The notes under the pieces: generated by a model
Databases searched by the model: none
Seen by the model: the letters and a program-made list of their open reading frames with translations, nothing else
What the model was told of the DNA's origin: nothing
Assembly (NCBI GenBank): GCA_015063325.1
Contig: SVUK01000006.1
Coordinates: 140,654 to 204,653 of the forward strand
Reading direction: 5' to 3'
Length of the DNA: 64,000 nt
Origin: Oscillospiraceae bacterium
Lineage (GTDB): Bacteria > Bacillota > Clostridia > Oscillospirales > CAG-272
Made by a program: the position numbers and the translations under genes
In this document: positions 1,729 through 61,903 of the stretch, in pieces
Position numbering within the stretch: the stretch's first letter is position 1
How the letters are laid out: each line of letters starts with the position of its first letter

Positions 1729-3027
1729 ATGAACAGAAAAATTTTGGTATCGTTTGGTTCCTTGCTTTTGGCGGTTGTTCTTCTATTTTTGACCGTTTCC
1801 TGCCAAAAGAAGATCATCGTTGAGGAGACAGATTTGCTCAAGGTCTATTTCGGGGAATCGGAAAATCCGCAACCGCGCAAAGCCGACGAGGTCAAGGGCG
1901 CCGCTCTTCCTGCCGATTTCCAAACTCAAATGGCACAGTTTGCGTTTTCGTTGCTCAATCGGACAATTCAATTCACAGAGGCAGGGGAAAATCAACTGTT
2001 GTCGCCGCTTTCGGCAATGTATTGTCTTGCGCTGATAGCCAACGGCGCAGGGAAAGAGACAAGAGCGCAGATGAGCCGTGTTCTCGGTATGGCACCAGAG
2101 GAACTCAATCCGGCTCTGCTTGCCTATGCGTTAGGGTTGCCGAGCGGCAAGGATGTCAAAATAGAAATGGCGAATTCGGTCTGGTTCCAGAATACCCCTT
2201 CGCTCAAAGTCAACGATTCCTTCCTGCAAACGGTGGCGGATTGGTACGCCGCGCAGGTCTACGCCTCGGCGTTCGACGACGAAACCGTAAAAAATATCAA
2301 CGCTTGGTGCGAAAAATATACCGACGGAATGATCAAAAAGATGATTGAAAACATTGATTCTCTCGGTATGCTCTATCTGATCAACGCGCTGGTTTTCGAT
2401 GCCAAATGGGAAACCGAATATGAAGATCATCAGGTCGGGGAGGGAGAATTTACTGCGGCAAACGGCGAAAAACAAACGGTAACTTTTCTTTCTTCTAACG
2501 AGTACGCGTATTTGGCAGGTAAAAATTTTGAAGGCGTTGTGAAATATTACAAAGGCGGGGACTACGCTTTTGTGGGTCTTCTTCCGAAAGCGGAAATCGA
2601 TGCCGAAACGCTTGCCGAAACGCTGACCGGTGACGAATGGATGACCGCATGGCAAAATAAGAGTTACGAGACGGTTAAAACCAAAATTCCCGAATTCAAA
2701 ACCGAATCTTCTATCAGATTGACCGATATTCTGCGCGAGATGGGCATGACTGACGCATTTGATCCAACCGTTGCCGACTTTTTGCCCATGGGCACTTGCA
2801 ATGACGGGGGACTCTGCCTTTCGAACGTCATGCAAAAGACCTATCTGGAAGTGGACCGCAACGGCACAAAAGCGGCGGCAGTGACGTGGGGAGAGATAAA
2901 GTTCGGCAGTGCGCCGCCATCAGAAAATTCCAAGGAGATCTATCTGGATCGTCCCTTTGTTTATCTTGTTGTGGATACCGCCACAGGCATTCCCTCCTTT
3001 ATCGGCGTTACGCAAACTCTGCGGTAA
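1729..3027 (+). CDS. Serpin-family lipoprotein (serine protease inhibitor)
   Basis: Lipobox LTVSC; serpin motifs SPLS, ANSVW, NAWC..YTDGMI, LINALVFDAKW, IPEFK, hinge EVDRNGTKAAAVT and signature DRPFVYLVVD. Confidence 0.92.
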   Translation: MNRKILVSFGSLLLAVVLLFLTVSCQKKIIVEETDLLKVYFGESENPQPRKADEVKGAALPADFQTQMAQFAFSLLNRTIQFTEAGENQLLSPLSAMYCLALIANGAGKETRAQMSRVLGMAPEELNPALLAYALGLPSGKDVKIEMANSVWFQNTPSLKVNDSFLQTVADWYAAQVYASAFDDETVKNINAWCEKYTDGMIKKMIENIDSLGMLYLINALVFDAKWETEYEDHQVGEGEFTAANGEKQTVTFLSSNEYAYLAGKNFEGVVKYYKGGDYAFVGLLPKAEIDAETLAETLTGDEWMTAWQNKSYETVKTKIPEFKTESSIRLTDILREMGMTDAFDPTVADFLPMGTCNDGGLCLSNVMQKTYLEVDRNGTKAAAVTWGEIKFGSAPPSENSKEIYLDRPFVYLVVDTATGIPSFIGVTQTLR

Positions 3028-21953: not shown

Positions 21954-23048
21954 TCAAACGTTAAACCGGAAGTAAACGACATCTCCGTCCTGCATGATAT
22001 AGTCTTTTCCCTCGCTGCGGAGCGCGCCGGCTTCCTTGACGGCGTTCATACTGCCGTATTTCTTCAAATCGTCAAAGGCGACGACCTCGGCGCGAATGAA
22101 TCCGCGCTCAATATCCGAGTGGATTTTTCCGGCGGCTTTCGGCGCCTTTGTTCCTTTTCGGATCGTCCATGCGCGGCATTCGTCGGGACCGGCAGTCAGA
22201 AAGCTGATCAGCCCCAAAAGGGAATAGCTTGCCTTGATCAAACGATCCAATCCGCTTTCTTCAATGCCGAGGTCGGAAAGGAACAAGCTCTTTTCCTCTG
22301 CCGAAAGCTCGGCGATTTCGGCTTCAATCTGACAGCAGATGGGAATGACCTGCGAGTGCTCCTCTTCGGCAAACTCTTTGAGCGCTTTGTAAGCGAGGAG
22401 ATCAAGCGGCTCGGTTGCGGCATAGTCTTCGCTGACGTTGGCAACATAAATCACCGGTTTCATGGTCAAAAGCGGCGTATCCGCAAGAATTGTTTTTTCA
22501 TCCTCGGTCAATTCCAGCGTGCGCGCACTCTTTCCGCTTTCCAAAACGGCGTAAATTTTTTCCAAAAGTTCCAGTTCAACCGCGTATTTTTTGTCGCCGC
22601 GTAAAGCTTTCTTTGTTTTATCAATGCGGCGCTCCAAAATTTCCATATCCGAAAAGATCAATTCCAAATTGATGGTCTCCAAATCGCGCATGGGGTCAAT
22701 CTTTCCGTCCACGTGGATGATATTATCGTCCTCAAAACAGCGAATGACGTGCAGAATAGCGTCCACTTCCCGAATGTTGCCCAAGAATTGATTGCCCAAT
22801 CCTTCTCCTTTGGAAGCTCCTTTTACCAAACCGGCAATATCCACAAATTCGATCACTGCCGGGGTATATTTTGCCGGATGGTGCATTTCTGCAAGAAAAT
22901 CCAGCCGCGCGTCGGGAACGGTGACCACGCCGACGTTCGGTTCAATGGTGCAAAAAGGATAGTTTGCGGATTCTGCTCCCGCGTTTGTCAGCGCGTTGAA
23001 CAGCGTGCTCTTTCCAACGTTCGGCAATCCTACGATACCAAGTTTCAT
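21954..23048 (-). CDS. ychF: Redox-regulated ribosome-binding ATPase YchF
   Basis: [62 protein letters not shown]. Confidence 0.98.
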
Positions 23049-23165
23049 AAAAAAGTCCTCTTTCATTTCGTTCTGTCTTTCCCGTCTATTATAAACGATT
23101 TTCGCTTGTTTGGCAAGAGAGAAGAGGAAAAAAGGCGAAAATTTACAAAAAATTCGGTTTTTGTA

Positions 23166-23195
23166 TTTACAAAGCGGATTTTAATATGGTATAAT
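23166..23195 (+). promoter_or_regulatory. SigA promoter for the two-component system
   Basis: TTTACA-18 nt-TATAAT with extended -10 TG. Confidence 0.7.
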
Positions 23196-23234
23196 ACAGA
23201 AAAGAATGGAAGAAAATTCAAGGAGGACCGGAAT

Positions 23235-23927
23235 ATGACCGATACCCGAATTTTGATCGTTGATGACGACGCGAATATCAGCGAGCTTTTGAAAATCCAC
23301 TTCGAAAGCGAAGGTTACAGTGTGAAAACCGCCGGGGACGGTATCGAGGGGATTGCGCTGTTCAAATCCTTTGAGCCGGATCTGGTTCTTTTGGATATTA
23401 TGCTTCCAAAAAAGGACGGCTGGCAGGTTTGTCGCGAGATCCACGAGATTTCTTCCAAACCGATTATCATGGTCACCGCGAAAGGCGAGGTTTTTGATAA
23501 GGTGTTGGGGTTGGAACTCGGCGCCGACGATTTTGTTGTCAAGCCCTTTGATATGAAGGAACTTTCCGCTCGCGTCAAAGCGGTGCTTCGCCGCTCAAAA
23601 CTCAATGCGCGTGACGCCGACGAGGAAGTGCTCAAATTTGAAAATTTGGAAATCAGCCTGCAAAAATATGAACTGAAAATCAATGGCAAAGCCGTTGATA
23701 CCCCACCGAAGGAACTGGAGTTGCTCTATTTTTTAGCCTCCAATTATAATCGCGCTTTTTCGCGTAACCAACTGCTGGACAAGGTTTGGGGATTTGACTA
23801 TTTGGGCGATTCCAGAACCGTTGACGTTCATGTTAAGCGCCTACGCGACAAACTCAAGGATGTTTCCGACAAATGGCAACTCAAAACGGTTTGGGGCGTT
23901 GGTTATAAATTTGAAGTGTTCAACTGA
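23235..23927 (+). CDS. OmpR/PhoB-family response regulator
   Basis: ILIVDDD, LLDIMLP (phospho-Asp), GADDFVVKPF, wHTH SRTVDVHVKRLRDKL..TVWGVGY. Start 23235 after AGGAGG. Confidence 0.96.
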   Translation: MTDTRILIVDDDANISELLKIHFESEGYSVKTAGDGIEGIALFKSFEPDLVLLDIMLPKKDGWQVCREIHEISSKPIIMVTAKGEVFDKVLGLELGADDFVVKPFDMKELSARVKAVLRRSKLNARDADEEVLKFENLEISLQKYELKINGKAVDTPPKELELLYFLASNYNRAFSRNQLLDKVWGFDYLGDSRTVDVHVKRLRDKLKDVSDKWQLKTVWGVGYKFEVFN

Positions 23928-24014: not shown

Positions 24015-25499
24015 ATGTTCAAAAGTGTTTTTGCAAAATACGTAACCGCGGTTATGTCGATTTTTGCCATCGGCTTTGCAATCCTTTTGTTTATCGCAAC
24101 CTCTATCGTTAACAATTATATTTCACGCTCCAAAATCCGGGAGATGGATAGTACGGCGAAAGCACTGCAAAATGTAGTGTCTCATCTTGCGGTTGATTGC
24201 GAGCCGGAGAATTTTGAGGCGTGTTTCCAAGCCGCTGTGGAGAAGCCCGAGTTGCCGCTCTCCCAACTGATTTCCGCACTGACCGGAAGAGACGGCGATA
24301 TTGCCGTCCTTGTTGCCGACGCAAACGGGAACGTTTTTTCCATTGCCGGTTTTCATCTTACCAAAGGGCAGCCGGAGGAACGGTTTGTTCTTTCCGAGGA
24401 GCTGAACGGGGCTGCTAAACAAGGGGAACAAACGGTGCAAAGCGCGCAACTGCCGTTTCTTTCCAGTGCGATTCCGGCACGCGTGGAACCCATTCGGAAT
24501 TTTGAACGAGACTATTGCGGCTGTATCGTCGTTTGCGTTACGCAGTTGGATAGCAGTCTCATGCGAGAAGAGATGATTCAATCTATTCTTTCAACGGCAA
24601 TGCTTGTGTTGGTTGCCGCAATGATTGCCGTTTATTTCATCAGTGCGCGCGTCATCTCTCCGCTTCGGGAAATGAGTATTGCCGTTGATCGCTTTGCAAA
24701 GGGAAAATTTGATACGCGCGTCAGCGTTCGGGGAAATGATGAGGTTGCGCGTCTTGCGGAAGCTTTTAACAATATGGCGGATTCACTGGATAATTTGGAA
24801 AAAATGCGCTCCTCCTTTGTTGCCAATGTCTCTCACGATTTGCGAACGCCGATGACGACCATCAGCGGTTTCATCGGAGAGATTCGTTCGGGAGTAATTC
24901 CGCCCGAAAAGCAGGATTATTACCTCGGTGTGATTGAGACCGAGGTGAAGCGGCTTTCCAGACTTGTTGCATCGCTTTTGGATCTTTCCAAGATTCAGGC
25001 AGGCGAACGAAAATTCGTTATGCGGCAATTTGATATTTGCGAAATGGGGCGGCAGATCTTGCTTTCTTTTGAACAGCCGATTGAGCAGAAAAATTTGCAG
25101 ATTTCGTTTGATTGCGACGAGGAGCGAATGCTTGCGAATGCCGATCAGGACGCCATTTATCAGGTGTTCTATAACCTATGCCATAACGCCGTCAAGTTTT
25201 CGCGCGAGGGCGGAGAACTGCGGATTGCAATTGCAGAAACCAAAGAGCATAAAATTCGAGTTTCGGTTTATAATGAAGGAGAGGGGATTCCCGAGGAAGA
25301 TCTTCCGTTTGTGTTCGATCGTTTTTATAAGAGCGATAAAAGTCGGGGACTGGATAAATCGGGGCTGGGATTGGGACTGTATATTTCCAAAACCATTATC
25401 GAAGCGCACGGAGAGACCATTTCCGTCCGAAGCGAACCGAACAAATATTGTACCTTTCAATTCTCCCTCAAAAAAGCCGCCGCAGACGAGCGAGAATAA
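24015..25499 (+). CDS. HAMP-domain sensor histidine kinase
   Basis: Two TMs, HAMP, H-box VSHDLRTP, N-box NLCHNAVKF, FDRFYK, GLGLGLYIS. Confidence 0.96.
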   Translation: MFKSVFAKYVTAVMSIFAIGFAILLFIATSIVNNYISRSKIREMDSTAKALQNVVSHLAVDCEPENFEACFQAAVEKPELPLSQLISALTGRDGDIAVLVADANGNVFSIAGFHLTKGQPEERFVLSEELNGAAKQGEQTVQSAQLPFLSSAIPARVEPIRNFERDYCGCIVVCVTQLDSSLMREEMIQSILSTAMLVLVAAMIAVYFISARVISPLREMSIAVDRFAKGKFDTRVSVRGNDEVARLAEAFNNMADSLDNLEKMRSSFVANVSHDLRTPMTTISGFIGEIRSGVIPPEKQDYYLGVIETEVKRLSRLVASLLDLSKIQAGERKFVMRQFDICEMGRQILLSFEQPIEQKNLQISFDCDEERMLANADQDAIYQVFYNLCHNAVKFSREGGELRIAIAETKEHKIRVSVYNEGEGIPEEDLPFVFDRFYKSDKSRGLDKSGLGLGLYISKTIIEAHGETISVRSEPNKYCTFQFSLKKAAADERE

Positions 25500-25511: not shown

Positions 25512-26546
25512 ATGCCGAGCTATGCATTTTTCGATACAAAATCCTACGACCGTCCTTTTTTTGAGCGATACGGAAAGAAATCGGGGATCGAATTTCGCTT
25601 TTTTGAAACTCGGCTCACACAAGATACCGTTGGGCTTGCCAACGGGTTTGACGGCGTTTGCGCGTTTGTCAATGATGTGATAAACGCCGAAGTTCTTGAA
25701 TCGCTTTACTGCGGCGGTGTGCGTACCGTTGCTTTGCGGTGCGCCGGCTACAATAATGTGGATCTTCACACCGCATTTGGTAAAATCCATGTCGTTCATG
25801 TTCCGGCGTATTCGCCCAATGCCGTTGCCGAGCATGCCATGGCAATGCTTTTGACCAGCATTCGCCGTATTCACAAAGCCTATATCCGAACAAAGGATTT
25901 CAATTTCAGTCTTGATGGATTGACCGGATTTGAATTGCACGGCAAAACGGTAGGCGTTATCGGTACCGGGCGCATCGGACGCGCGTTTATTGAGATCTGC
26001 CGGGGATTCGGTATGAAAATCATCGCTTATGATAAATTTCCAACACCCGAAGGCGGTATTGATTATGTTTCTTTAGATACTCTTTTTGCCGAGAGCGATG
26101 TGATCTCCCTGCATTGTCCGCTGACCGAGGAGACATACCATACTGTTTGTGCAGAGACTATTGAAAAAATGAAAACCGGAGTGGTTATCGTCAACACTTC
26201 ACGCGGTGCACTCATTGACGCTGAAGCGTTGCTGGATGCCATTAAGGATCGCAAGATAGGCGCGGCTTGTCTGGACGTTTACGAGGAGGAAAGCGATATT
26301 TTTTTTGAGGACTATTCCGGACACATTCTGGAAGACGATACGCTGGCAAGGCTGATCTCCATGCCCAATGTACTGGTCACATCTCATCAGGCTTTTTTAA
26401 CCGAAGAAGCACTGGATACAATTGCAAAAACGACGGTGGAAAACATTCTTGAATTGCAGACAAACGGATGGTGCAAAAACGAGCTATGCTACCGGTGCGG
26501 CAAAACCGAAGTTTGTAGCGCCGCCAGAACGGGTAAATGTTTTTGA
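25512..26546 (+). CDS. ldhA: D-isomer-specific 2-hydroxyacid (D-lactate) dehydrogenase with a Cys-rich C-terminal tail
   Basis: LRCAGYNNVD, VPAYSPNAVAEH, GVIGTGRIG, SLHCPL, VNTSRG, LDVYEEE, TSHQAFLT. Confidence 0.88.
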   Translation: MPSYAFFDTKSYDRPFFERYGKKSGIEFRFFETRLTQDTVGLANGFDGVCAFVNDVINAEVLESLYCGGVRTVALRCAGYNNVDLHTAFGKIHVVHVPAYSPNAVAEHAMAMLLTSIRRIHKAYIRTKDFNFSLDGLTGFELHGKTVGVIGTGRIGRAFIEICRGFGMKIIAYDKFPTPEGGIDYVSLDTLFAESDVISLHCPLTEETYHTVCAETIEKMKTGVVIVNTSRGALIDAEALLDAIKDRKIGAACLDVYEEESDIFFEDYSGHILEDDTLARLISMPNVLVTSHQAFLTEEALDTIAKTTVENILELQTNGWCKNELCYRCGKTEVCSAARTGKCF

Positions 26547-26611: not shown

Positions 26612-26640
26612 TTGACAGAAATACCGTTTCGTGATACAAT
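26612..26640 (+). promoter_or_regulatory. SigA promoter of the decarboxylase operon
   Basis: TTGACA-17 nt-TACAAT with extended -10 TG. Confidence 0.85.
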
Positions 26641-26664: not shown

Positions 26665-26703
26665 ATGATATCCGAAATTTCCCGTTTTACCGGATCATTT
26701 TGA
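26665..26703 (+). CDS. Putative 12-aa leader peptide (uORF) MISEISRFTGSF
   Basis: GGGAGG at 26652-26657, ATG 26665, TGA 26701-26703, inside the predicted 5' leader. Confidence 0.35.
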   Translation: MISEISRFTGSF

Positions 26704-26775
26704 TTTTTGAATATGATCGTTTTAATCTTTGAATATGATCATTTTGATCGTTGAATATGATCGGAATATGATTGT
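26693..26775 (+). repeat. Three 22-bp tandem repeats plus a partial unit, with GATC every 22 bp
   Basis: GATCATTTTGATTTTTGAATAT / GATCGTTTTAATCTTTGAATAT / GATCATTTTGATCGTTGAATAT / GATCGGAATATGATT. Confidence 0.92.
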
Positions 26776-26802: not shown

Positions 26803-28131
26803 ATGAAAAACAATTCGGTGGGTTCCCAAAGAATTGCCCGGCTTTTTGACGCCGGAACCTTTGTGGAGCTGGGTGCTTACCGCAAAAGACCCGACGGAGC
26901 CGCCACCGGCGCCGTTTGCGGTTACGGTGCTGTAAACGGTCGGCTCGTTTATGCATTCTCGCAGGACAGCGACCGCCAAAAAGGCGCGTTTGACATTCTG
27001 CAAGCCGAGAAGATTGCCGATCTCTATTCGCTTGCACTCAAAAACGGGGCGCCGGTCGTCGGTATTTTCGATAGTGCAGGTGCCTATGTTGCAGACGGCG
27101 CCTCGGCACTTTCGGCATTCGGCAAATTCCTTGCTTCGGTCAGTCGTGCGTCGGGCGCAATTCCGCAAATTGCCTTGATCGGCGGCACCTGTGCAGGACT
27201 TGCGGCAACCGCCGCCGCCATGTTTGATTTGACGGTTTTGATTGATGGAAAATCGCAACTTTTTGTCAACGCGCCTTTTGTGGTGGGCAAAGAGGTTGGG
27301 ACAGCCGAGTTTGTCCGCGCGAAGGGACTTTCCTCGGTAACGGTTGCCGAGGAGAATGAAGCGTTTGCCGCACTGCGCACGATTCTTGATTTGCTTCCGG
27401 CAAGCGCCGAGGAGGGCGTTACTGCCGCTGACTCTGCCGACGACGTTAATCGCGCGGTTTCTTCGGCAGATGTTGCCGAACTTGCCGATACGGGTTCGCT
27501 TTTAGAGATTGGCGCCGGCTATGCCGACGAAATGCGCGTTTATCTTGCGCGTATGGGCGGTGTTCCTTGCGGAGTTGTGGCAAACAATGGTGCCATTACT
27601 GCCGAGGGGGCAAAAAAGACCGCGCGGTTTGTCGGTTTTTGCGATAGTTTCGGTTTGCCGATTGTAACGCTGACCGATAGCGTTGGCGTTGCCGTTAGTT
27701 CAGCGGAAGAGGGAAGCCCACTTGCCGCCGCGCTCGGCAAACTTGCCATGACCTACGCAAACGCGACCGCGGCGAAGATCACCGCCGTCATTGGGAAAGC
27801 CTATGGTGCGGCGTTTACCTTGATGGGCTCCAAAGCGCTTGGCGCGGATGTGGTTTACGCGCTCCCGACCGCCGAGATCAGCGCAATGGCGCCGGAAGCC
27901 GCCGTAGCATTCCTTTGGAATGATCAAATCACCGAAACGACCACAAGAGAAACGCTCGTTTCCAGGTGGAAAGCCGAGTGTGCCTCTCCCGAAGCGGCTG
28001 CCGCCGACGGAAGCATTGATGATGTGATTGATCCTTCGGAGCTTCGTCAGCGTATTTGCGCCGCCGTTTACATGCTTCTTGAAAAGAGTAACGGTGAACC
28101 GGCGCGCCTGCACAGCAATCTTCCGCTTTGA
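26803..28131 (+). CDS. Acyl-CoA carboxyltransferase-family protein (MmdA / transcarboxylase 12S-like), divergent
   Basis: RIARLFDAGTFVELG, GAVCGYGAVNGRLV, ASGAIPQI, GKAYGAAF..MGSKALGAD, IDDVIDPSELR...HSNLPL. Confidence 0.85.
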   Translation: MKNNSVGSQRIARLFDAGTFVELGAYRKRPDGAATGAVCGYGAVNGRLVYAFSQDSDRQKGAFDILQAEKIADLYSLALKNGAPVVGIFDSAGAYVADGASALSAFGKFLASVSRASGAIPQIALIGGTCAGLAATAAAMFDLTVLIDGKSQLFVNAPFVVGKEVGTAEFVRAKGLSSVTVAEENEAFAALRTILDLLPASAEEGVTAADSADDVNRAVSSADVAELADTGSLLEIGAGYADEMRVYLARMGGVPCGVVANNGAITAEGAKKTARFVGFCDSFGLPIVTLTDSVGVAVSSAEEGSPLAAALGKLAMTYANATAAKITAVIGKAYGAAFTLMGSKALGADVVYALPTAEISAMAPEAAVAFLWNDQITETTTRETLVSRWKAECASPEAAAADGSIDDVIDPSELRQRICAAVYMLLEKSNGEPARLHSNLPL

Positions 28132-28145
28132 TGGGAGGCGCTTTT

Positions 28146-28502
28146 ATGGCACAATTGTTGTTTTTGTTGACCAAAGACACTCGCCCGTTCGGGGAACGCG
28201 CGAGTGAAGCCGGTACCGTATCGCTGTTGGGAATGTTGGCAATTTTCGGCGTTCTTGCGCTGCTTTGGGGGGCGATTGAACTATTTCACCTCTGCATTTC
28301 CGCTTTGGAAAAGAAAAAAGCAAAAAAGCAGGCGCTCTTCCAACAATCCTTGCCGGTTGAAGGTATCGATCTGCAACCGGAGGTACAACCGGTGGATGAC
28401 GGCGCGCTGATTGCCGCCATTACTGCGGCAATTACCGCCGCAAGAACCGAGGAGGGAAATACGACCGGATTCCGTGTGGTTTCCTTCCGTCGTATGCACT
28501 GA
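28146..28502 (+). CDS. Na+-translocating decarboxylase small membrane subunit (OadG / MmdD family)
   Basis: Single TM (LLGMLAIFGVLALL), DDGALIAAITAAI, C-terminal FRVVSFRR. Confidence 0.85.
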   Translation: MAQLLFLLTKDTRPFGERASEAGTVSLLGMLAIFGVLALLWGAIELFHLCISALEKKKAKKQALFQQSLPVEGIDLQPEVQPVDDGALIAAITAAITAARTEEGNTTGFRVVSFRRMH

Positions 28503-28547
28503 TTTTCGAAATACAGCACCGAAAATAAGAAAGGTTTGGTATATCAA

Positions 28548-28919
28548 ATGAAAAATTATCGTGTTACCGTCAACGGCGTCGCTTACGACGTCTCTGTAGA
28601 AGAAATTGAGGGAAATACCCCCGTAGCCGTTTCCGCGGTTCCCAAGGTGGCTCCTGCCGCTCCTAAAGCCGCACCTGCCGCCCCTGCGGCAAGTGTTCCT
28701 GCCGGTGCCAATACTGTGAAAGCACCCATGCCGGGCAACATTCTCAAAGTTGCCGTCAAAGCCGGCGACAGCGTGAAAAAAGGCGCGCTATTGTGCGTTC
28801 TGGAAGCCATGAAGATGGAAAACGAGATCCTTGCTCCTGCAGACGGGACCATTGATACCGTTGCGGTTGCTCCCGGCGCCACCGTTGCCACCGACGCGGT
28901 TTTAGTTACCTATCATTGA
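28548..28919 (+). CDS. Stand-alone biotin carboxyl carrier protein
   Basis: YRVTVNGVAYDV, Ala/Pro linker, APMPGNI, LEAMKMENEI biotinylation motif. Confidence 0.95.
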   Translation: MKNYRVTVNGVAYDVSVEEIEGNTPVAVSAVPKVAPAAPKAAPAAPAASVPAGANTVKAPMPGNILKVAVKAGDSVKKGALLCVLEAMKMENEILAPADGTIDTVAVAPGATVATDAVLVTYH

Positions 28920-28961
28920 TCCTTTTTCAAAAAACAAAAATTTTAAGAAAGGATTTTACCC

Positions 28962-30299
28962 ATGATAGAGGCAATCAAAAACTTTTTGGGTTCTACCGGC
29001 GTTGCCCGATTGTTTGACGGGCAGGAAGCCTGGTGGAAGACCTTGATTATGATGGCGATTGCCGGGATTTTAGTCTATCTCGCCATTGCCAAAAAATTTG
29101 AGCCTTTGCTCCTGTTGCCGATTGCAATCGGCGTGCTTTTGACAAACCTTCCCGGCGGCGGACTCTTTCACGAGGGAATGTGGTTCGCCAATGTGGATCA
29201 ACTCAACGAGCTGATTCGGACGATTGCCAATCCAACCTCGACAAGCGAGGCGGTTGCGGCTGCAGAAGAAGCGCTCGCCCAATTCAGCGAGTGGTATTCA
29301 ATTGAATATGTTTACCAAAACGGGATTCCGGTCGTTACGTCGATTGCAGTCAACTATTTAAGCGTTCTTCAGCACGGCGGACTATTGGATATTCTGTATA
29401 TCGGCGTTAAAACCGGTATTTATCCCTGTCTGATTTTCATCGGTATTGGTGCGATGACCGATTTTACTCCGCTGATCTCCAATCCCAAAAGCCTGTTGAT
29501 CGGTGCCGGCGCGCAACTCGGCGTGTTTGTGGCGTTTGGCGGTGCCTTGCTTTCCGGTCAGTTTTTGGGTGTGGAAGCGGCTTCCATCGGAATTATCGGT
29601 GGCGCCGACGGACCAACGGCGATTACCGTTACCAAAACGCTTGCACCGGCTTTGCTCGGCGCCATTGCCATTGCGGCGTATTCCTATATGGCGCTGATCC
29701 CCATGATCCAGCCGCCGCTGATGAAGCTGTTGACCACCAAAAAGGAGCGCAAAATCCGCATGACAGCGCTTCGTCCCGTTTCCAAGGTCGAAAAAATCAT
29801 TTTCCCTGTCATCGTTACCGTGATTGTTGCCTTGATCGTTCCGGACGCGCTGGTGTTGATCGGTTGCCTGATGTTCGGCAATCTACTCAACGTTTGCGGT
29901 GTGACTGAGCGGCTTTCCAAAACGGTGCAGAACGAGCTGATGAATATTGTCACCGTCTTCCTCGGCATCACCGTCGGGGCAACGGCTGTTGCGGCGAACT
30001 TCTTGCGGTTGGAGACGTTGCTTATCATTGCGCTGGGGCTCGTTGCCTTTGCAATTTCGACGATCGGCGGACTGCTCACGGCGAAGATCATGAATAAGCT
30101 CACCGGCGGCAAGATCAATCCGCTCATCGGCTCCGCCGGCGTTTCCGCCGTTCCGATGGCGGCGCGCGTCAGCCAGAAGGTGGGGCAGGAGGAAGACCCC
30201 GGCAATTTCCTCTTGATGCACGCGATGGGACCGAACGTTGCCGGCGTGATCGGCTCGGCGGTTGCGGCAGGCGTTCTGCTTTCCTTCTTCAATAAATAA
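28962..30299 (+). CDS. oadB: Na+-translocating decarboxylase beta subunit (OadB / MmdB)
   Basis: FEPLLLLPI, GIGAMTDF, IGIIGGADGPT, AYSYMALIP, IGSAGVSAVPMAARV, MGPNVAGVIGSA. Confidence 0.95.
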   Translation: MIEAIKNFLGSTGVARLFDGQEAWWKTLIMMAIAGILVYLAIAKKFEPLLLLPIAIGVLLTNLPGGGLFHEGMWFANVDQLNELIRTIANPTSTSEAVAAAEEALAQFSEWYSIEYVYQNGIPVVTSIAVNYLSVLQHGGLLDILYIGVKTGIYPCLIFIGIGAMTDFTPLISNPKSLLIGAGAQLGVFVAFGGALLSGQFLGVEAASIGIIGGADGPTAITVTKTLAPALLGAIAIAAYSYMALIPMIQPPLMKLLTTKKERKIRMTALRPVSKVEKIIFPVIVTVIVALIVPDALVLIGCLMFGNLLNVCGVTERLSKTVQNELMNIVTVFLGITVGATAVAANFLRLETLLIIALGLVAFAISTIGGLLTAKIMNKLTGGKINPLIGSAGVSAVPMAARVSQKVGQEEDPGNFLLMHAMGPNVAGVIGSAVAAGVLLSFFNK

Positions 30300-30323
30300 G
30301 TCGGTAAAAAGGAGATTTGATCA

Positions 30324-31721
30324 ATGGCAAAAGTGAAAATTACCGAAACGGTTTTGCGCGATTCACACCAATCGCTGATTGCTACCCGGATGACCACCGA
30401 GGAAATGCTTCCCATTTTGGAAACAATGGATGGGGTGGGGTACCACTCGCTGGAAGCCTGGGGCGGCGCGACCTTTGACGCTTGTATGCGTTTCCTCAAC
30501 GAGGACCCTTGGGAGCGGTTGCGCAAGATCCGCGAACGGGTGAAAAATACCAAATTGCAAATGCTGTTCCGCGGTCAGAATATTCTGGGCTATCGCCACT
30601 ATTCGGACGACGTGGTGGAATATTTTGTGCAAAAGTCGATCGCAAACGGCATTGACATCATTCGCATTTTCGACGCGCTCAACGATCCGCGCAACCTCAA
30701 AACGGCGATCAACGCCACCAAAAAAGAGGGCGGACACGTGCAGGCGGCGTTCTCCTATACCACCGGACCCGTTTACACGCTGGAGTACTTTGCCAACTAT
30801 GCAAAACAGCTCGAAGAAATGGGTGCGGATTCCATTTGCATTAAGGATATGGCAGGACTTCTCAAACCTTACGACGCCTACGATCTTGTCAAGGCGCTCA
30901 AAGAGGCGGTCAAGGTGCCGATCCAGTTGCACACGCACTACACCTCCGGTCTTGCCTCCATGACGTTGCTCAAAGCGGTGGAAGCCGGGGTGGATATTAT
31001 TGATACGGCGATCTCGCCGATGGCAATGGGAACCTCGCAGGCGCCGACCGAATCGCTGGTCGCCGCGCTTGCCGGAACCGAATACGATACCGGCATCAGT
31101 TTAGATCAGCTCGACCCCATCACCAAATACTTTACACCTTTGCGCGAAAAATATCTGGCGAGCGGTCAGCTCAACCCAAAAGCGCTCAAAGTGGACGTCA
31201 ACGCCCTGCGCTACCAGGTGCCGGGCGGAATGCTCTCCAACCTGATGAGCCAGCTGGCGCAGGCAGGGAAGTCGGATCAACTCACCGCCGTGCTGGAAGA
31301 GGTTCCGCGCGTGCGCGCCGACGTTGGCTATCCGCCGCTGGTTACGCCTTCCTCGCAGATCGTGGGAACGCAGGCGGTGTTCAATGTGATTATGGGCGAG
31401 CGTTATAAGACCACCACCAAAGAGTTCCGCGGACTTGTGCGCGGCGAATACGGCAAAACGCCGGTGGAGATTGACCCCGCTTTTGTCAAAAAGATCATCG
31501 GCGACGAGGAACGCATTACCTATCGCCCTGCCGACGCGCTCAAGCCGGAGCTTGACACGCTGCGCGCCGAGATCGCCCCGTATCTCGAACAGGACGAGGA
31601 CGTTCTTTCCTACGCGCTCTTCCCGGAGGTTTCCAAAAAGTTTTTTGAGTACCGCAAGGCAAAGAAATACGGTTTAGACGCCGACCATGCCGATGCCAAA
31701 CTGGGTGTTCACGCAATTTAA
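30324..31721 (+). CDS. oadA: Oxaloacetate decarboxylase alpha / pyruvate carboxyltransferase (no biotinyl domain)
   Basis: LRDSHQSLIATR, WGGATFDACMRFL.EDPWERL, CIKDMAG, LHTHYTSG, QVPGGMLSN, PPLVTPSSQIVG. Confidence 0.93.
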   Translation: MAKVKITETVLRDSHQSLIATRMTTEEMLPILETMDGVGYHSLEAWGGATFDACMRFLNEDPWERLRKIRERVKNTKLQMLFRGQNILGYRHYSDDVVEYFVQKSIANGIDIIRIFDALNDPRNLKTAINATKKEGGHVQAAFSYTTGPVYTLEYFANYAKQLEEMGADSICIKDMAGLLKPYDAYDLVKALKEAVKVPIQLHTHYTSGLASMTLLKAVEAGVDIIDTAISPMAMGTSQAPTESLVAALAGTEYDTGISLDQLDPITKYFTPLREKYLASGQLNPKALKVDVNALRYQVPGGMLSNLMSQLAQAGKSDQLTAVLEEVPRVRADVGYPPLVTPSSQIVGTQAVFNVIMGERYKTTTKEFRGLVRGEYGKTPVEIDPAFVKKIIGDEERITYRPADALKPELDTLRAEIAPYLEQDEDVLSYALFPEVSKKFFEYRKAKKYGLDADHADAKLGVHAI

Positions 31722-31737: not shown

Positions 31738-31777
31738 GCTCCGGGCGCCGCACGTTTCGTGCGGCGCCCGGTTTTCT
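31738..31777. terminator. Terminator between oadA and the convergent membrane-protein gene
   Basis: ccgggcgccgcacg-ttt-cgtgcggcgcccgg-ttttc. Confidence 0.88.
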
Positions 31778-31801
31778 ATGCGCTTTTGGGTTGTTTTTCG
31801 G

Positions 31802-32215
31802 TTATTTTACGCCCATGGCGCGGAGGAGGTCGGCAAGCGTTTTGCCCTGCGTTTGCAAGAGGTATTGATCCAGCAGTTTGGCAATTTCGCCGTCCGGGTG
31901 GTTCATGGCTTCCATTACGATATAAACGCCGATGGCGATCAGGGCGATGGTGGCGACCAGCGCGAGAATGCCGAGCACCAGTCCGGCAATCGAAAATCCG
32001 CCCCATTTTCCTGCCTGCTTGCGCGAGATGACGGCGAAAACGATGGAAAGGATGACTGCCATCAAATCAAACCAAAGTCCGCCGAAAAAAAGAAACACAA
32101 GCGCGGCGATTCCCAAAATGAACGAGGCGATTGCCATACTGCGTCCGCGCCACGCAGAATTGGAAAAATCTACGGGCGGAAATCCGTTTTGATAATCGTT
32201 TTGATTGGGGTCCAT
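31802..32215 (-). CDS. DUF4190-like small membrane protein
   Basis: MAIASFILGI...AIVFAVISRKQ...GFSIAGLVLGIL; GGAGG RBS. Confidence 0.7.
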   Translation of the reverse strand: MDPNQNDYQNGFPPVDFSNSAWRGRSMAIASFILGIAALVFLFFGGLWFDLMAVILSIVFAVISRKQAGKWGGFSIAGLVLGILALVATIALIAIGVYIVMEAMNHPDGEIAKLLDQYLLQTQGKTLADLLRAMGVK

Positions 32216-32396
32216 AAAAAGCCCTCCTTTTTTCTGCTGCCATTATTTTACCACGTTTTCCGCCTTTTTACAATCCCATGCAAAAAAAGTTTACAAAAAC
32301 GAGACAAAAAAAGGGTATTTCCAAATACCTGTGCGCAAAAACTAAAGAAAATGGATAAAACGAACAAAAAAAGGATTAAAAAAAGGAGAGTGAAAA

Positions 32397-33500
32397 GTGC
32401 GGATTTTACATGTGATCAGTGACTCCAATATCGGCGGCGCAGGCGTTTTGCTATTAAATTTGTTGCGTTGGTTTGACCGCAAAAAAGTGGAAAGTGTGGT
32501 CGGGCTTCCCCGGGGAAGCCGACTGCGCCGCGCAGTGTTGGAAACGAAAACGCAGGTGGTGGAGCTGGATCAGGCGTGCGACCGCGTTTCGCCTGCATCG
32601 GTTTTGGAACTGCTGGGTGTCATCCGAGCAGTCAAGCCCGATCTTGTTCATGCAAATGCGGCAATTTCCGCGCGCCTTGCCGGAAAGCTCGCCGGGAAAA
32701 AGGTGATCTATACCCGGCATTGCACCTTCCCGGTCGAAAAGAAACTGCCGGTCGTCCGCTTTGCGCGGAATTTTTGGAACAACGCGCTTTGCGACTGCGC
32801 GATTGCAACGGCACGGGTGGCGGCGGTCGATCTGCGCGAAACGGGTATTCCGCGGCGAAAGATCGTCGTCATTCCCAACGGCTGTGAGCCGGTGCGCGAA
32901 GTTTTGCCGGGCGAGATCGAGCTTTTTCGGGCAAAATACGGCATTTCCGAAGAAGATTTTTGCGTTGGCATTTGCGCGCGTTTGGAACCCTGCAAAGGAC
33001 ACGAAATTTTTCTGCGTGCGGCAAAAGAGGCAATCGACGCCATGCCGGAAATCCCGTTTCGTTTTTTGATTGTTGGAGAGGGAAGCTGCCGTGCAGAACT
33101 GGAGACTTTGGCGAAAGAGTTGAAAATTGCCGACCGCGTGGTCTTTTGCGGCTTTTTGTACGACCCTGCGCCGATCTACCGGATTATGCAAATTCACGTA
33201 AACTGCTCGGTTGGCACCGAAACCTCATCTCTTGCCGTTAGCGAAGGGTTTAGCGCCGGACTGCCTACCGTTCTTTCCGACTACGGCGGCAACCGTGATA
33301 TGCTCGGGGAGAGCGGCGCAGGAATATGCGTTTCAAAGGGCAACCCAAAAGCCCTTGCCGAGGCAATTTGCAAATTGGCAGGCGATGACGCGTTTCGAGC
33401 GGAAACTTCGCGCAAGGCAAGAAAACGCTACGAGCAAAACTATACCGCCGCCAGCATGGCAAAACGGCTGACGGCGGTATATGAGGGGATGTTGCGCTAA
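32397..33500 (+). CDS. Glycosyltransferase family 4 (GT-B)
   Basis: MRILHVISDSNIGGAG, VHAN, ARLEPCKGH, ETSSLAVSEG..GLP. Confidence 0.92.
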   Translation: MRILHVISDSNIGGAGVLLLNLLRWFDRKKVESVVGLPRGSRLRRAVLETKTQVVELDQACDRVSPASVLELLGVIRAVKPDLVHANAAISARLAGKLAGKKVIYTRHCTFPVEKKLPVVRFARNFWNNALCDCAIATARVAAVDLRETGIPRRKIVVIPNGCEPVREVLPGEIELFRAKYGISEEDFCVGICARLEPCKGHEIFLRAAKEAIDAMPEIPFRFLIVGEGSCRAELETLAKELKIADRVVFCGFLYDPAPIYRIMQIHVNCSVGTETSSLAVSEGFSAGLPTVLSDYGGNRDMLGESGAGICVSKGNPKALAEAICKLAGDDAFRAETSRKARKRYEQNYTAASMAKRLTAVYEGMLR

Positions 33501-58266: not shown

Positions 58267-58916
58267 GCGTTTTCGCCCTCCGGTAAAAAGCCGTTGCAAA
58301 GCTGCATAGCTCCGTCAAAATCTTTTAAGAGCAATTTTTTTAAGCCGCTTTCAACAATAGGGAACGCTTTTTGCAAAAGTTTTCGATCGGTTTCGGAAAA
58401 AGATGACAAAACCCAGTCTGCAAGATCGTAATCGGGGTGCGGTTTTTCACCGATTCCAATGCGAATCCGGGGAAAATCCTCGGTCCCGAGACAGGAAATG
58501 ATATCTTTCAGTCCGTTGTGCCCCCCGGCGCTTCCTTTTCTGCGAACGCGCAAATGCGCAACGGGCAGGGAGATGTCGTCAGATATCACAATCACGTTGC
58601 TTGCCGGGATTTTGTAGAAGTCCGCGGCTTCACCAACGGCAAGACCGGAAAGATTCATCAGAGTTTGCGGTTTCATCAAAAGCACGCGAACTCCCTCAAT
58701 CACAGCTTCTCCGACCAAGGAATGAAATTTTGCGTGATCGACGGTCGTACCGGCGGATGCGGCAATAAAATCCAATGCCAAAAAGCCGGTGTTGTGTCGT
58801 GTGCCGGCGTACTGCTTTCCCGTATTTCCAAGTCCGACAATCAAGAAAGAGATCGGCTCTTTTTGTGCAGACTCTTTTTTTTCAATTTTACGAAACAAAT
58901 CAAAAATATTCGACAT
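58263..58916 (-). CDS. pth: Peptidyl-tRNA hydrolase
   Basis: LIVGLGN..Y..TRHNTGF, KPQTLMNLSG, DDISL, GSAGGHNGLK, RIRIGIG. Confidence 0.97.
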   Translation of the reverse strand: MSNIFDLFRKIEKKESAQKEPISFLIVGLGNTGKQYAGTRHNTGFLALDFIAASAGTTVDHAKFHSLVGEAVIEGVRVLLMKPQTLMNLSGLAVGEAADFYKIPASNVIVISDDISLPVAHLRVRRKGSAGGHNGLKDIISCLGTEDFPRIRIGIGEKPHPDYDLADWVLSSFSETDRKLLQKAFPIVESGLKKLLLKDFDGAMQLCNGFLPEGENA

Positions 58917-59028
58917 GGTTGATTATCCTTTCCGGTTCCCCCGAATACGCCAAAAGGCGCCCGATTCCGTTTGCCCGAGGTTCATCGGTGCCGCGGAATC
59001 CGCCGCGCATTGTTTTTATTCTTTCTGT

Positions 59029-59057
59029 ATTATACATGATTTTCGGGAGTTTGTCAA
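59029..59057 (-). promoter_or_regulatory. SigA promoter for pth-mfd
   Basis: Perfect TTGACA-17 nt-TATAAT with extended -10 TG. Confidence 0.88.
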
Positions 59058-59257
59058 ACGAAAAACGTGCATTTTTAGCCGTTCACAAAATGTTTACAAT
59101 TTTGAAATATATTTCTGACTGTAAAACTATGGAAAAAAAGAGAAAAATATGGTATAATGCAAGGCGAACTGTGACATGGACAACCGTGCGACGGCTTTTT
59201 TGTGTGCAAAAGGGAGTTTCATGTCGAGAAAAATCAAAATTTGGAGGAATACCAAAC

Positions 59258-61903
59258 ATGGCAAAGAAGTATTGCTATCTGTTCACCGAAGGTGATGCCA
59301 GCATGCGCAACCTGCTGGGCGGCAAAGGCGCAAACCTTGCGGAAATGACCAAGATCGGTCTCCCGGTTCCCCAGGGCTTCACCATTTCCACTGAGGCTTG
59401 CACGCAGTATTATGAGGACGGCAGAACCATCAACGATTCCATCATGGCGGAGATCATGAAAAACGTTGAAAAAATGGAAGAGATCAACGGCAAAAAGTTC
59501 GGCGATCTTAAAAATCCGTTGCTCGTTTCTGTTCGTTCCGGCGCTCGCGCTTCCATGCCGGGTATGATGGATACCATCCTGAACCTCGGTTTGAACGACG
59601 ATGTAGTTGCCGCAATGATCAAAGGCAACCCCGATCCCGCATTCGAGCGTTTCGTATACGACTCTTACAGACGTTTCATTCAAATGTTCTCCGACGTCGT
59701 TATGGAAGTTGGCAAGAAGTATTTTGAACAGCTGATCGACAAGATGAAAGAGCAGAAGGGCGTGAAGTTCGACGTTGATTTGACCGCCGCTGACCTCAAA
59801 GAGCTTGCCGGACAGTTCAAAGCAGAATACAAGAAACAGTTGGGCAAAGATTTCCCGAGCGATCCGAAGGAACAGCTCTACGAAGCAATTCGCGCCGTCT
59901 TCCGCTCTTGGGACAACCCCCGTGCCAACGTTTATCGCCGCGACAACGACATTCCGTACTCTTGGGGTACCGCCGTCAACGTGATGCCGATGGTGTTCGG
60001 TAACCTGAACAACAATTCCGGTACAGGCGTTGCTTTCACGCGCGACCCTGCAACCGGCGAAAAGAAACTGATGGGCGAATTCCTCGTCAATGCACAGGGC
60101 GAAGACGTTGTTGCAGGCGTTCGTACCCCGATGCCTATCGCACAGATGGAAAAACAGTTCCCCGAAGCTTACGCACAGTTCGTTGAAGTTTGCGGAATTT
60201 TGGAGAACCGTTACCGCGATATGCAGGATATGGAATTCACCGTTGAAAACGGCAAACTCTATATGCTTCAGTGCCGCAACGGTAAGAGAACCGCACAGGC
60301 AGCTCTCCAAATCGCATGCGACCTCGTTGACGAAGGCATGAGAACCGAGAAGGAAGCCGTTCTGATGATCGATCCTCGTAACCTTGACACGCTTCTGCAC
60401 CCACAGTTTGACGCAAAAGCTCTCAAAGCCGCAAAACCGCTCGGTCGCGGTTTGGGCGCTTCTCCCGGAGCCGCTTGCGGACAGATCGTCTTCACCGCTG
60501 ATGATGCCGAGGCTTGGAAGAAAGCCGGCAAGAAGGTCGTCCTCGTTCGCTTGGAGACCTCTCCCGAAGATATCACCGGTATGAAAGCCGCACAGGGCAT
60601 TCTGACCGTTCGCGGCGGTATGACCTCTCACGCAGCCGTCGTTGCTCGCGGTATGGGTACCTGCTGCGTTTCCGGATGCGGCGACATTGTTATGGACGAG
60701 GAGAACAAGAAGTTTACCCTCGCCGGCAAGACCTTCCATGAAGGCGACGTCATCTCCATCGACGGTTCCACCGGTAACATTTACGGCGAAGCCATCGCAA
60801 CCGTTGACGCCACCATCGGCGGCAACTTCGGACGCATCATGGCTTGGGCTGATAAATATCGCAAACTCAAGGTCCGCACCAATGCCGACACGCCGCGCGA
60901 CGCAAAGAAAGCGCGCGAGCTGGGCGCCGAGGGCATCGGACTTTGCCGCACCGAGCATATGTTCTTCGAGCCGGATCGTATCGCAGCATTCCGCGAAATG
61001 ATCTGCTCGGATACCGTTGAGGAAAGAGAAGCTGCTCTTGCAAAGATTCTGCCCATGCAGCAGAGCGATTTCGAGAAACTCTACGAAGCTTTGGAAGGCT
61101 ACCCGGTTGTTATCCGCTTCCTGGATCCGCCGCTCCACGAGTTCGTTCCCACCACCGAGGAGGACATTGCTCTCCTCGCAAAGGCACAGGGCAAGACCGT
61201 TGAGCAGATCAAAGCGATTATCGCAAGCCTGCACGAGTTCAACCCCATGATGGGTCACCGCGGATGCCGCCTTGCAGTTACCTATCCGGAAATCGCCGCA
61301 ATGCAAACCCGTGCCGTCATTCGCGCCGCTATCAACACCAAGAAAGCTCACCCCGATTGGAATGTTGAACCCGAGATCATGATTCCGCTGGTTGGCGAAG
61401 TCAAAGAGCTCAAGTATGTCAAGAATACCGTCGTTAAAGTTGCCGACGAGGAAATTGCCGCCGCAAAGAGCAATCTGAAGTATCAGGTTGGTACCATGAT
61501 CGAGATTCCGCGCGCCGCTCTGACCGCCGATGAGATCGCAAAAGAAGCCGAATTCTTCTGCTTCGGTACCAATGACCTCACTCAGATGACCTTCGGCTTC
61601 AGCCGCGATGATGCCGGCAAATTCCTGGGCGCTTACTACGACGCCAAGATTTACGAGAACGATCCGTTTGCAAAACTCGACCAGGTCGGTGTTGGCAAAC
61701 TGATGAAGATGGCTGTTACTCTCGGTCGTGAAGCTCGTCCGGGCCTCTCCTGCGGTATCTGCGGAGAGCACGGCGGCGATCCCACGTCGGTTGAGTTCTG
61801 CCATGAGATCGGTCTGGACTACGTTTCCTGCTCGCCTTACCGTGTACCGATCGCACGCCTCGCCGCTGCACAGGCTGCAATCAAGGAAGCAGAAGCAAAA
61901 TAA
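59258..61903 (+). CDS. ppdK: Pyruvate, phosphate dikinase
   Basis: LLGGKGANLAEM, SVRSGARASMPGMMDT, RGGMTSHAAVVARG (phospho-His), GIGLCRTEHMF, FGTNDLTQ, GICGEHGG. Start 59258 after GGAGG. Confidence 0.99.
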   Translation: MAKKYCYLFTEGDASMRNLLGGKGANLAEMTKIGLPVPQGFTISTEACTQYYEDGRTINDSIMAEIMKNVEKMEEINGKKFGDLKNPLLVSVRSGARASMPGMMDTILNLGLNDDVVAAMIKGNPDPAFERFVYDSYRRFIQMFSDVVMEVGKKYFEQLIDKMKEQKGVKFDVDLTAADLKELAGQFKAEYKKQLGKDFPSDPKEQLYEAIRAVFRSWDNPRANVYRRDNDIPYSWGTAVNVMPMVFGNLNNNSGTGVAFTRDPATGEKKLMGEFLVNAQGEDVVAGVRTPMPIAQMEKQFPEAYAQFVEVCGILENRYRDMQDMEFTVENGKLYMLQCRNGKRTAQAALQIACDLVDEGMRTEKEAVLMIDPRNLDTLLHPQFDAKALKAAKPLGRGLGASPGAACGQIVFTADDAEAWKKAGKKVVLVRLETSPEDITGMKAAQGILTVRGGMTSHAAVVARGMGTCCVSGCGDIVMDEENKKFTLAGKTFHEGDVISIDGSTGNIYGEAIATVDATIGGNFGRIMAWADKYRKLKVRTNADTPRDAKKARELGAEGIGLCRTEHMFFEPDRIAAFREMICSDTVEEREAALAKILPMQQSDFEKLYEALEGYPVVIRFLDPPLHEFVPTTEEDIALLAKAQGKTVEQIKAIIASLHEFNPMMGHRGCRLAVTYPEIAAMQTRAVIRAAINTKKAHPDWNVEPEIMIPLVGEVKELKYVKNTVVKVADEEIAAAKSNLKYQVGTMIEIPRAALTADEIAKEAEFFCFGTNDLTQMTFGFSRDDAGKFLGAYYDAKIYENDPFAKLDQVGVGKLMKMAVTLGREARPGLSCGICGEHGGDPTSVEFCHEIGLDYVSCSPYRVPIARLAAAQAAIKEAEAK

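Follow-up and report, generated by a model that had tools for sequence, protein, structure and literature searches.

A five-gene operon in a 64,000-nucleotide stretch of DNA from an Oscillospiraceae bacterium (assembly GCA_015063325.1, contig SVUK01000006.1, positions 140,654 to 204,653 of the forward strand; the whole of this stretch is hereafter called the window) very probably encodes a predicted Na+-pumping oxaloacetate decarboxylase (OAD) of the split Firmicute type, headed by the gene for a divergent acyl-CoA carboxyltransferase (CT). The genes for CT, OadG, a free biotin carrier, OadB and OadA form, in this order, one transcription unit in which all five are co-directional on the plus strand, with a promoter on the 5′ side and a terminator on the 3′ side (Table 1). 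The five reading frames lie where a first-pass annotation, made from the sequence alone, had placed its Na+-pumping decarboxylase operon, with coordinates and family matches in agreement, and the gene families likewise bear out its description of two different carboxyltransferases grouped with a single biotin carrier and a single pump subunit. CT itself may be without catalytic activity and serve as an architectural core, or at most a ligand-sensing one, in a transcarboxylase-like head, a role that is put forward tentatively. The combination of an OAD pump with such a core is the best explanation of the operon as a whole, and its probability is judged to be a little short of even.

Among primary pumps, the sodium-pumping decarboxylases form a small and classic family, and to our knowledge a single carboxyltransferase serves each member described so far. 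In the operon studied here, a complete pump for oxaloacetate is joined by a second such subunit, of the transcarboxylase type. Hundreds of species of uncultured Clostridia from rumen and gut have conserved it, and the selective pressure on it matches that on the pump subunit.

The four pump genes look like an intact split OAD that is, judging by its conserved motifs, apparently fully functional. The OadA protein clears the NCBIfam model NF008985 (792 bits against a cut-off of 718) and keeps the metal and carbamyl-lysine motifs RDSHQS, IKDMAG and LHTHYTSG. Its residues 1-446 align to residues 1-443 of the 617-aa PycB (5ks8), and it also aligns to OadA (2nx9) and to the transcarboxylase 5S subunit (1rqb), the latter with E = 3e-146. 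No Biotin_lipoyl match was found in OadA with Pfam, and since the protein ends where the carboxyltransferase domain ends, it lacks both the association and the biotinyl domains, the second of which the first-pass annotation had already reported missing. Residues essential in the Salmonella and Klebsiella OadB pumps have been defined by mutagenesis (PMC7274780), and all of them are present in the window OadB when it is aligned to Salmonella OadB (6iva), with the motifs holding E40, D203, Y229, R304 and N311, as well as those holding N373, G377, S382, N412 and S419, all kept. The biotin carrier has its EAMKME biotinylation motif behind an Ala/Pro linker, and its best NCBIfam match, NF047903 (MmdC), reaches 126 bits, under the cut-off of 200, so that it fails the MmdC equivalog test. 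The OadG protein contains one hydrophobic helix and a C-terminal AAITAAITAA...FRVVSFRR tail.

The departure from a conventional pump lies in CT, whose three motif deviations quoted in the first-pass annotation prove exact on alignment to canonical enzymes. The sequence DSAGAYVADG at residues 90-99 aligns to the DSGGARIQEG of 1vrg and a canonical set, GTCAGLA at residues 128-134 to GPCAGGA, and DSVGVAVS at residues 292-299 to D(T/V)PG(Y/F)LPG; in addition, the KAYGGAY of canonical enzymes is KAYGAAF in the window CT. Enzymes of this class have two glycine-based oxyanion holes, as seen by cryo-electron microscopy, of which the first is G-G in AccD5 and G-A in AccD4 and the second is G-A or G-G (bioRxiv 10.64898/2026.02.06.704326). 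In the window CT, hole 1 is G132-L133 and hole 2 is A336-A337, and both are thus altered, from G-G to G-L/M and from G-A to A-A. The best NCBIfam match of CT is TIGR01117 (mmdA), which scores it at only 283 bits against a cut-off of 998.8, so that CT fails the MmdA equivalog test. The fold is nevertheless that of the canonical subunit: an AlphaFold2 model built from 92 sequences has a predicted local distance difference test (pLDDT) score of 94.1 and contains the full 12S fold, with a Foldseek template modelling (TM) score of 0.90 to the beta subunit of propionyl-CoA carboxylase, to 12S (1on3) and to AccD5.

The first-pass annotation had described CT as motif-eroded, a description that does not survive comparison with its relatives, since the motif changes are the signature of a large, old subfamily under purifying selection and not erosion of the window's gene. 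A word-index search found 2068 relatives, hundreds of them 60-90% identical, and all relatives in this range of identity come from uncultured Clostridia of the rumen, caecum, colon or human gut; an exhaustive search gave 757 clusters at E 1e-30 or better. The relatives are encoded in at least 433 species-level genomes. Across 265 homologues the variant motifs recur as a family signature, DSxGAxVxDG, G[VI]C[AS]G[LM], [TV]DSxGVxVS and KAYGAAFT. When the window is compared with its three nearest relatives, dN/dS is 0.075-0.105 for CT, 0.06-0.08 for OadB, 0.08-0.11 for OadG, 0.023-0.027 for OadA and 0.17-0.20 for the biotin carrier, which places CT in the range of the pump subunit OadB. With 28 MmdA/12S-like proteins from Clostridia as the canonical reference, 36 of 130 canonical-invariant columns are kept in CTs of the five-gene operon type. 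Within the window's own subclade, 72 canonical-invariant residues are retained, with an entropy of 0.25 against a background of 1.06, and 50 are replaced, of which 18 have become fixed in a new state (A336, T136, A138, G331, F370 and W389 among them); the replaced positions that vary freely include 92, 294, 298, 310 and 363. The active-site region has thus been remodelled, not abandoned.

These data dispose of the idea that CT is a functionless gene in decay, on its way to becoming a pseudogene, which the selection data refute and which is hardly credible. Its canonical motifs have indeed been lost and broken copies do occur, such as the CT match of genome G239 (locus L102), which contains one TGA and one TAG codon, but the dN/dS of CT is on par with that of OadB, its reading frame is intact in hundreds of species, its AlphaFold2 model is confident, and the canonical residues it retains are far more conserved than the background. 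One further relative with signs of decay, in genome G114 (locus L146), has its CT beside weak, split OadA-like matches only, with neither carrier nor OadB.

The arrangement of the operon recurs among its relatives. Among the best 80 related loci, CT, carrier, OadB and OadA occur in the window's order at 58, with OadG detectable in 57 of those, and the remainder comprises 21 loci cut by contig ends and one with CT, biotin carboxyl carrier protein (BCCP) plus OadA only; because the gene order recurs in this way, the five-gene cluster is not a chance juxtaposition. In an even sample of 251 draft genomes of the window's order, a CT relative is present in 66, and comparison of all 66 loci sorts them into three groups. 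Type I, the five-gene form, is found in 36 genomes, the window's own included, and type II, in which CT, carrier and OadA stand without adjacent OadB or OadG, in 23, plus one with OadB ~4 kb away. The third group, the canonical CTs, consists of three solo copies and one copy beside a carrier and OadA, and within the 66-locus set the motifs DSGGARIxEG, GPCAGG, DVPGFLPG and KAYGGAY are confined to them. CTs linked to the window-type OadA lineage are variant in every case in the order sample. The one canonical copy in a cluster (genome G096, locus L141; DSGGARIEEG, GPCAGG, DVPAFLPG, KAYGGAY) is directly followed by a carrier and then by an OadA from the lineage of CT-less operons; this triad looks like a classical transcarboxylase, and FabF, biotin carboxylase and mutase were not found in its genome.

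Phylogeny ties the variant CT to its partner. In the OadA tree, the 58 OadA proteins that accompany variant CTs all group in a single clade of their own (support 97). Outside this clade lie the OadA of same-family operons without CT and the OadA linked to a canonical CT, and inside it type II is nested in type I. The CT tree, which is unrooted, is less clean, with a tight canonical clade branching among variant lineages. The single OadA clade indicates that the variant CT has travelled with its OadA as one unit. The subunits of transcarboxylase, 12S, 5S and 1.3S, are physically associated, and by analogy the co-travel of CT and OadA would fit a physical association here.

The metabolic setting of CT was assessed by Pfam searches of the window's own genome, a draft of 1.68 Mb and 95.6% completeness, in which CT is the sole Carboxyl_trans gene. 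These searches found no FabF (PF00109) or FabD (PF00698), no methylmalonyl-CoA mutase (PF01642) and no acyl-CoA dehydrogenase; for biotin carboxylase they returned only a 38.8-bit match to PF02786 and nothing for PF02785, and no acetyl-CoA carboxylase (ACC) or other searched malonyl-CoA consumer was detected in the genome. One orphan acyl carrier protein is encoded between argininosuccinate lyase and ComEC. An ATP-type phosphoenolpyruvate carboxykinase (PEPCK; 713 bits), pyruvate kinase and malic enzyme are present, and pyruvate phosphate dikinase (PPDK) is encoded within the window. CT is kept though the fatty-acid synthesis, ACC and methylmalonyl-CoA pathways were not found, and the genome therefore offers a natural clean background for its role.

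Across the order sample, FabF was detected in 127 of 251 genomes and biotin carboxylase in 121. Roughly half of the sample thus lacks detectable FabF and biotin carboxylase, the two nearly always occurring or vanishing together, which suggests a widespread loss of type II fatty-acid synthesis (FAS II) in these gut and rumen Clostridia. Among the 36 type I genomes, 27 have neither gene, 7 have both and 2 have FabF only; both are present in 21 of the 23 type II genomes. In four families, type I occurs in members with FAS as well as in members without it, and within one family the CT motifs are alike in FAS-positive and FAS-negative members. In FAS-positive genomes with listed coordinates, AccC lies a few kb from fabF (e.g., G246, G233 and G187); AccA also adjoins fabF/AccC in all five FAS-positive genomes checked, and FAS-positive genomes with the CT-BCCP-OadA form have normal AccC and AccA near fabF. 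Methylmalonyl-CoA mutase was detected in a single one of the 251 genomes, which has no CT. Because the partner pathways were not found here or in most five-gene genomes, roles of the five-gene form in malonyl-CoA supply or in the propionate pathway are disfavoured, on the basis of non-detections in samples of draft genomes. For this genome, malonyl-CoA supply for fatty-acid synthesis was rejected as a candidate, as FabF, FabD, ACC and biotin carboxylase were not found in it.

The propionate pathway fares still worse. That CT could be an independent alpha subunit of methylmalonyl-CoA decarboxylase (MmdA), or else serve a propionate-pathway transcarboxylase as its 12S subunit, is suggested by the best NCBIfam matches of CT (TIGR01117 mmdA) and of the carrier (MmdC), and a similar three-gene cluster of the isolate BL-4 has been proposed as a methylmalonyl-CoA transcarboxylase (PMC7764203). 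However, the mmdA score is far under its cut-off (283 against 999), and the MmdA-like role raised in the first-pass annotation has no pathway behind it: mutase was not found in the window's genome, its single occurrence in the order sample is never together with CT, and the authors who described BL-4 likewise found no mutase (PMC7764203). This candidate was rejected, and the reading is very improbable and close to refuted.

A stronger competitor is an active dual-head enzyme in which CT would exchange the carboxyl group between biotin and a short acyl-CoA, most plausibly the acetyl-CoA/malonyl-CoA pair, so that one carrier would send the CO2 of oxaloacetate either to the pump or to malonyl-CoA and the complex would work as a membrane-coupled transcarboxylase/decarboxylase switch. 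The full 12S fold, the strong purifying selection and the retention of core motif glycines, C130, K272 and D281 all speak for a working site; FabF is present in 9 of the 36 five-gene genomes, and four-gene relatives in Clostridium thermocellum and Caldicellulosiruptor bescii have been treated as a putative ATP-free source of malonyl-CoA (PMC5414155; PMC7071700). The same survey nevertheless makes this reading rather unlikely: the window's genome yielded none of FabD, FabF, ACC or the other malonyl-CoA consumers searched for, 27 of the 36 five-gene genomes have neither FabF nor biotin carboxylase, members of one family have the same CT motifs whether FAS-positive or FAS-negative, FAS-positive genomes with the three-gene form already have normal AccC and AccA near fabF, and both oxyanion holes are altered.

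The part that CT plays in the complex is further constrained by operons that do without it. OadB was found in 183 of the 251 order genomes, and the four-gene OAD pump lacking CT is common in the window's order and family alike. The CT-less loci inspected, three of them from the window's own family, encode OadG (~105 aa), carrier, OadB and an OadA of 464-469 aa, and these four-gene operons come in two gene orders. To judge from such operons, the short OadA works with OadB and OadG in the absence of CT. The candidate in which CT is a needed membrane bridge for an OadA without an association domain is weakened by these OadA proteins of the same length. Another candidate, a second complete CT-less OAD in the five-gene genomes, found no support, as the second OadB copies inspected are orphans with no OadA or carrier adjoining. 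A second OadB paralogue, 45-54% identical and ~375 aa long, is frequent in five-gene genomes. At all six second-OadB loci compared (L162-L167, in genomes G075, G210, G021, G163, G179 and G152), no match to the other operon proteins stands beside it, and at the one such locus scanned with Pfam the neighbours are a FAD-binding oxidoreductase, an ATP-binding cassette transporter and an energy-coupling factor transporter component.

The preferred explanation, an OAD pump with a non-catalytic CT core, would work as follows. The carboxyl group of oxaloacetate would be shifted by OadA onto the biotin of the free carrier, and carboxybiotin would then be decarboxylated by OadB with export of Na+, the complex being anchored by OadG. 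The oxaloacetate would most likely come from phosphoenolpyruvate (PEP) via the ATP-forming PEPCK, and conversion of PEP to pyruvate would yield ATP plus a sodium gradient, while pyruvate could pass on to D-lactate through the neighbouring dehydrogenase, a possible pyruvate sink. The PEP-oxaloacetate-pyruvate route proposed in the first-pass annotation remains plausible, given the ATP-type PEPCK, the D-2-hydroxyacid dehydrogenase upstream and PPDK in the window. An oligomer of CT would form, together with OadA and the biotin carrier, a transcarboxylase-like head docked on the pump, in which CT would be neither a working acyl-CoA carboxyl donor nor an acceptor in this organism. We infer the assembly of CT with OadA, the loss of acyl-CoA catalysis and the direction of flux. 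As predicted from sequence, the alteration of both oxyanion holes, taken with the partner pathways not having been detected, leans toward the non-catalytic reading, and in the sample searched the variant CT branch occurs only beside one particular OadA lineage. Between the two alternatives that the first-pass annotation had left, the switch and a non-catalytic CT, the balance leans toward the second, as ACC, FAS II and mutase were not found; the further notion that the pump needs CT as a scaffold is not supported, given the CT-less operons.

Several points weigh against this preferred explanation. The CT core residues D90, S91, G93, G128, C130, G132, K272, C280, D281 and G335 are retained, and nothing in these computations demonstrates that CT is active or inactive; oxyanion holes use backbone amides, and the active AccD4 already has G-A in hole 1 (bioRxiv 10.64898/2026.02.06.704326). 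The absence of partner pathways is itself an absence from Pfam searches of a draft. The pump does not need a CT core, given the four-gene relatives without it, and CT as an obligatory scaffold is weakened because those relatives carry an equally short OadA. Finally, newly fixed residues in a former active site could mean a new substrate or new chemistry instead of a structural role.

This last point leads to a further possibility, that CT has gained a new substrate or a sensing role, and that its remodelled site binds a ligand that is not one of the classical short acyl-CoAs. CT would carboxylate or decarboxylate this ligand, or the ligand would gate the pump in response to metabolic state, for instance the level of acetyl-CoA. 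On this view CT would be either a catalytic head acting on a substrate not among the known acyl-CoAs or an acyl-CoA sensor gating the sodium pump. Such a role would suit the 18 of 50 replaced positions that are invariant in their new state (including A336, T136, A138, G331 and W389), the retention of CT without known partner pathways and its co-diversification with a dedicated OadA lineage. Against it, neither the genome nor the gene neighbourhood offers a candidate ligand or pathway, positions 92, 294, 298, 310 and 363 vary freely as relaxed sites do, and the idea is purely inferential; it is regarded as distinctly unlikely.

What is at stake differs between these readings. If CT is structural, as preferred here, a catalytic hexamer would have been recycled as an assembly core. 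If CT is active or regulatory, the PEP-oxaloacetate-pyruvate node, which sets the yield of ATP and of the sodium gradient in abundant gut fermenters, would acquire a new reaction or point of control. If the new-substrate or sensor reading is true, the five-gene complex would be a new class among Na+-translocating decarboxylases, one with an output dependent on the thioester state of the cell.

Table 1. Positions in the window of the operon genes, their transcription signals and the gene directly upstream
Feature	Position	Strand	Details
D-isomer 2-hydroxyacid (D-lactate-type) dehydrogenase	25512..26546	+	2-Hacid_dh_C 184 bits; directly upstream of operon
Promoter-like site	26612..26640	+	TTGACA, 17 nt spacer, TACAAT, extended TG; 11/12 consensus positions
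Tandem repeats of ~22 bp, each with GATC	26693..26775	+	In transcribed leader of operon
CT, divergent 12S/PccB-type acyl-CoA carboxyltransferase	26803..28131	+	442 aa; Pfam PF01039 Carboxyl_trans 254 bits
OadG-like membrane anchor	28128..28502	+	OAD_gamma 53 bits, cut-off 27
Free biotin carboxyl carrier (MmdC/OadD/1.3S-like)	28536..28919	+	Biotin_lipoyl 72 bits; EAMKME
OadB, Na+-translocating carboxybiotin decarboxylase	28962..30299	+	OAD_beta 507 bits; TIGR01109 486 bits
OadA/5S-type oxaloacetate-pyruvate carboxyltransferase	30324..31721	+	465 aa; HMGL-like + PYC_OADA; NF008985 792 bits
Bidirectional intrinsic terminator	31741..31771	both	14-bp stem, 13 G-C pairs, T runs on both strands

Both hexamers of the promoter are conserved in four related loci. 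The leader repeats are missing from the aligned leaders of L003, L005, L006 and L008, and because these four otherwise alignable leaders do not have them, the repeats are specific to the window, where they look like a recent insertion or duplication. OadG probably starts at the ATG at 28131, in overlap with the stop codon of CT (TGATG), and the biotin carrier at the ATG at 28548. The top NCBIfam matches of the upstream dehydrogenase are D-lactate dehydrogenases, and a D-2-hydroxyacid dehydrogenase also lies 0.2-1.3 kb upstream of CT in L003, L006 and L008 and ~3.8 kb upstream in L007.

Just upstream of this dehydrogenase lies an OmpR-type two-component system, with a response-regulator open reading frame (ORF) ending at 23927 and a kinase at 24015-25499. 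As listed, the response-regulator ORF (22713-23927, 404 aa, GTG start) overlaps the minus-strand gene for the GTPase YchF (21954-23066); its true start is probably near 23240, since the receiver domain begins only at residue 180. On the other side of the operon, 3′ of the terminator, a plus-strand ORF at 31778-32422 (214 aa) is of low complexity, has no family match and is antisense to a 137-aa minus-strand ORF at 31802-32215; it is not a member of the operon and is probably spurious, and the translation of the minus-strand ORF, read by eye, resembles a small membrane protein. The PPDK gene (58775-61903) appears in the ORF list with 1042 aa, which exceeds the length of typical PPDKs, and probably starts at a codon further downstream, because its first Pfam domain begins only at residue 179. 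Elsewhere in the window, a bacterial serpin of 432 aa is encoded at 1729-3027 (Serpin 259 bits).

Of the systems described so far, the closest to the pump is the split Na+-translocating OAD of Enterococcus faecalis, a functional enzyme composed of OadA, the biotin carrier OadD, OadB and OadH (PMC6193673; PMC3198936). The two share an OadA without a biotinyl domain of its own, a separate carrier, an OadB pump and a small anchor. Unlike the E. faecalis enzyme, with its four subunits and single carboxyltransferase, the window operon is headed by a fifth gene, for a 12S-type CT; its OadA is of a distinct lineage, one invariably linked to CT, and no citrate-lyase cluster surrounds the operon. The methylmalonyl-CoA:pyruvate transcarboxylase of Propionibacterium freudenreichii (EC 2.1.3.1; 1on3, 1rqb), a soluble enzyme, resembles the operon in combining three soluble parts, a 12S-fold CT, a 5S-type CT and a small carrier with an N-terminal extension. 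The window adds the membrane subunits OadB and OadG to this set, however, and its 12S-like CT is without the canonical oxyanion-hole and DxPGF motifs, with no methylmalonyl-CoA mutase pathway found for it. The Na+-translocating methylmalonyl-CoA decarboxylase MmdABCDE, known from Veillonella parvula and Propionigenium modestum, comprises a CT of the acyl-CoA type together with a small anchor, a biotin carrier and a beta pump subunit, and its gene order is similar to that of the window. It differs from the window operon in that the window CT scores well under the mmdA cut-off and is accompanied by OadA, and in that no source of methylmalonyl-CoA was found.

The order of CT, a small gamma-like protein, BCCP and OadA/5S recurs in poorly characterised clusters of other Clostridia. 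Cluster Clo1313_1523-1526 of C. thermocellum has been recruited as a malonyl-CoA source in a metabolic model (PMC5414155), and the counterpart cluster of C. bescii is co-regulated with fab genes (PMC7071700). Compared by description only, these clusters differ from the window's in having no OadB and in belonging to hosts with fatty-acid synthesis; the CT of C. thermocellum, at 56 kDa, is of full size. The CT-BCCP-OadA cluster of the isolate BL-4 (Clostridia), whose CT is 33% identical to 12S and for which no mutase was found (PMC7764203), is the same triad as that of the window and corresponds to the type II form of the order sample, but has no adjacent OadB or OadG. No study, biochemical or structural, of a pump that combines the two types of carboxyltransferase turned up in a literature search. 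Added here to what these systems have taught are the order-wide cross-tabulation of CT against FabF, biotin carboxylase, OadB and mutase, the clean metabolic background of the window's genome, the CT-less pumps in the same family, the data on selection and site fixation, and the single OadA lineage tied to CT.

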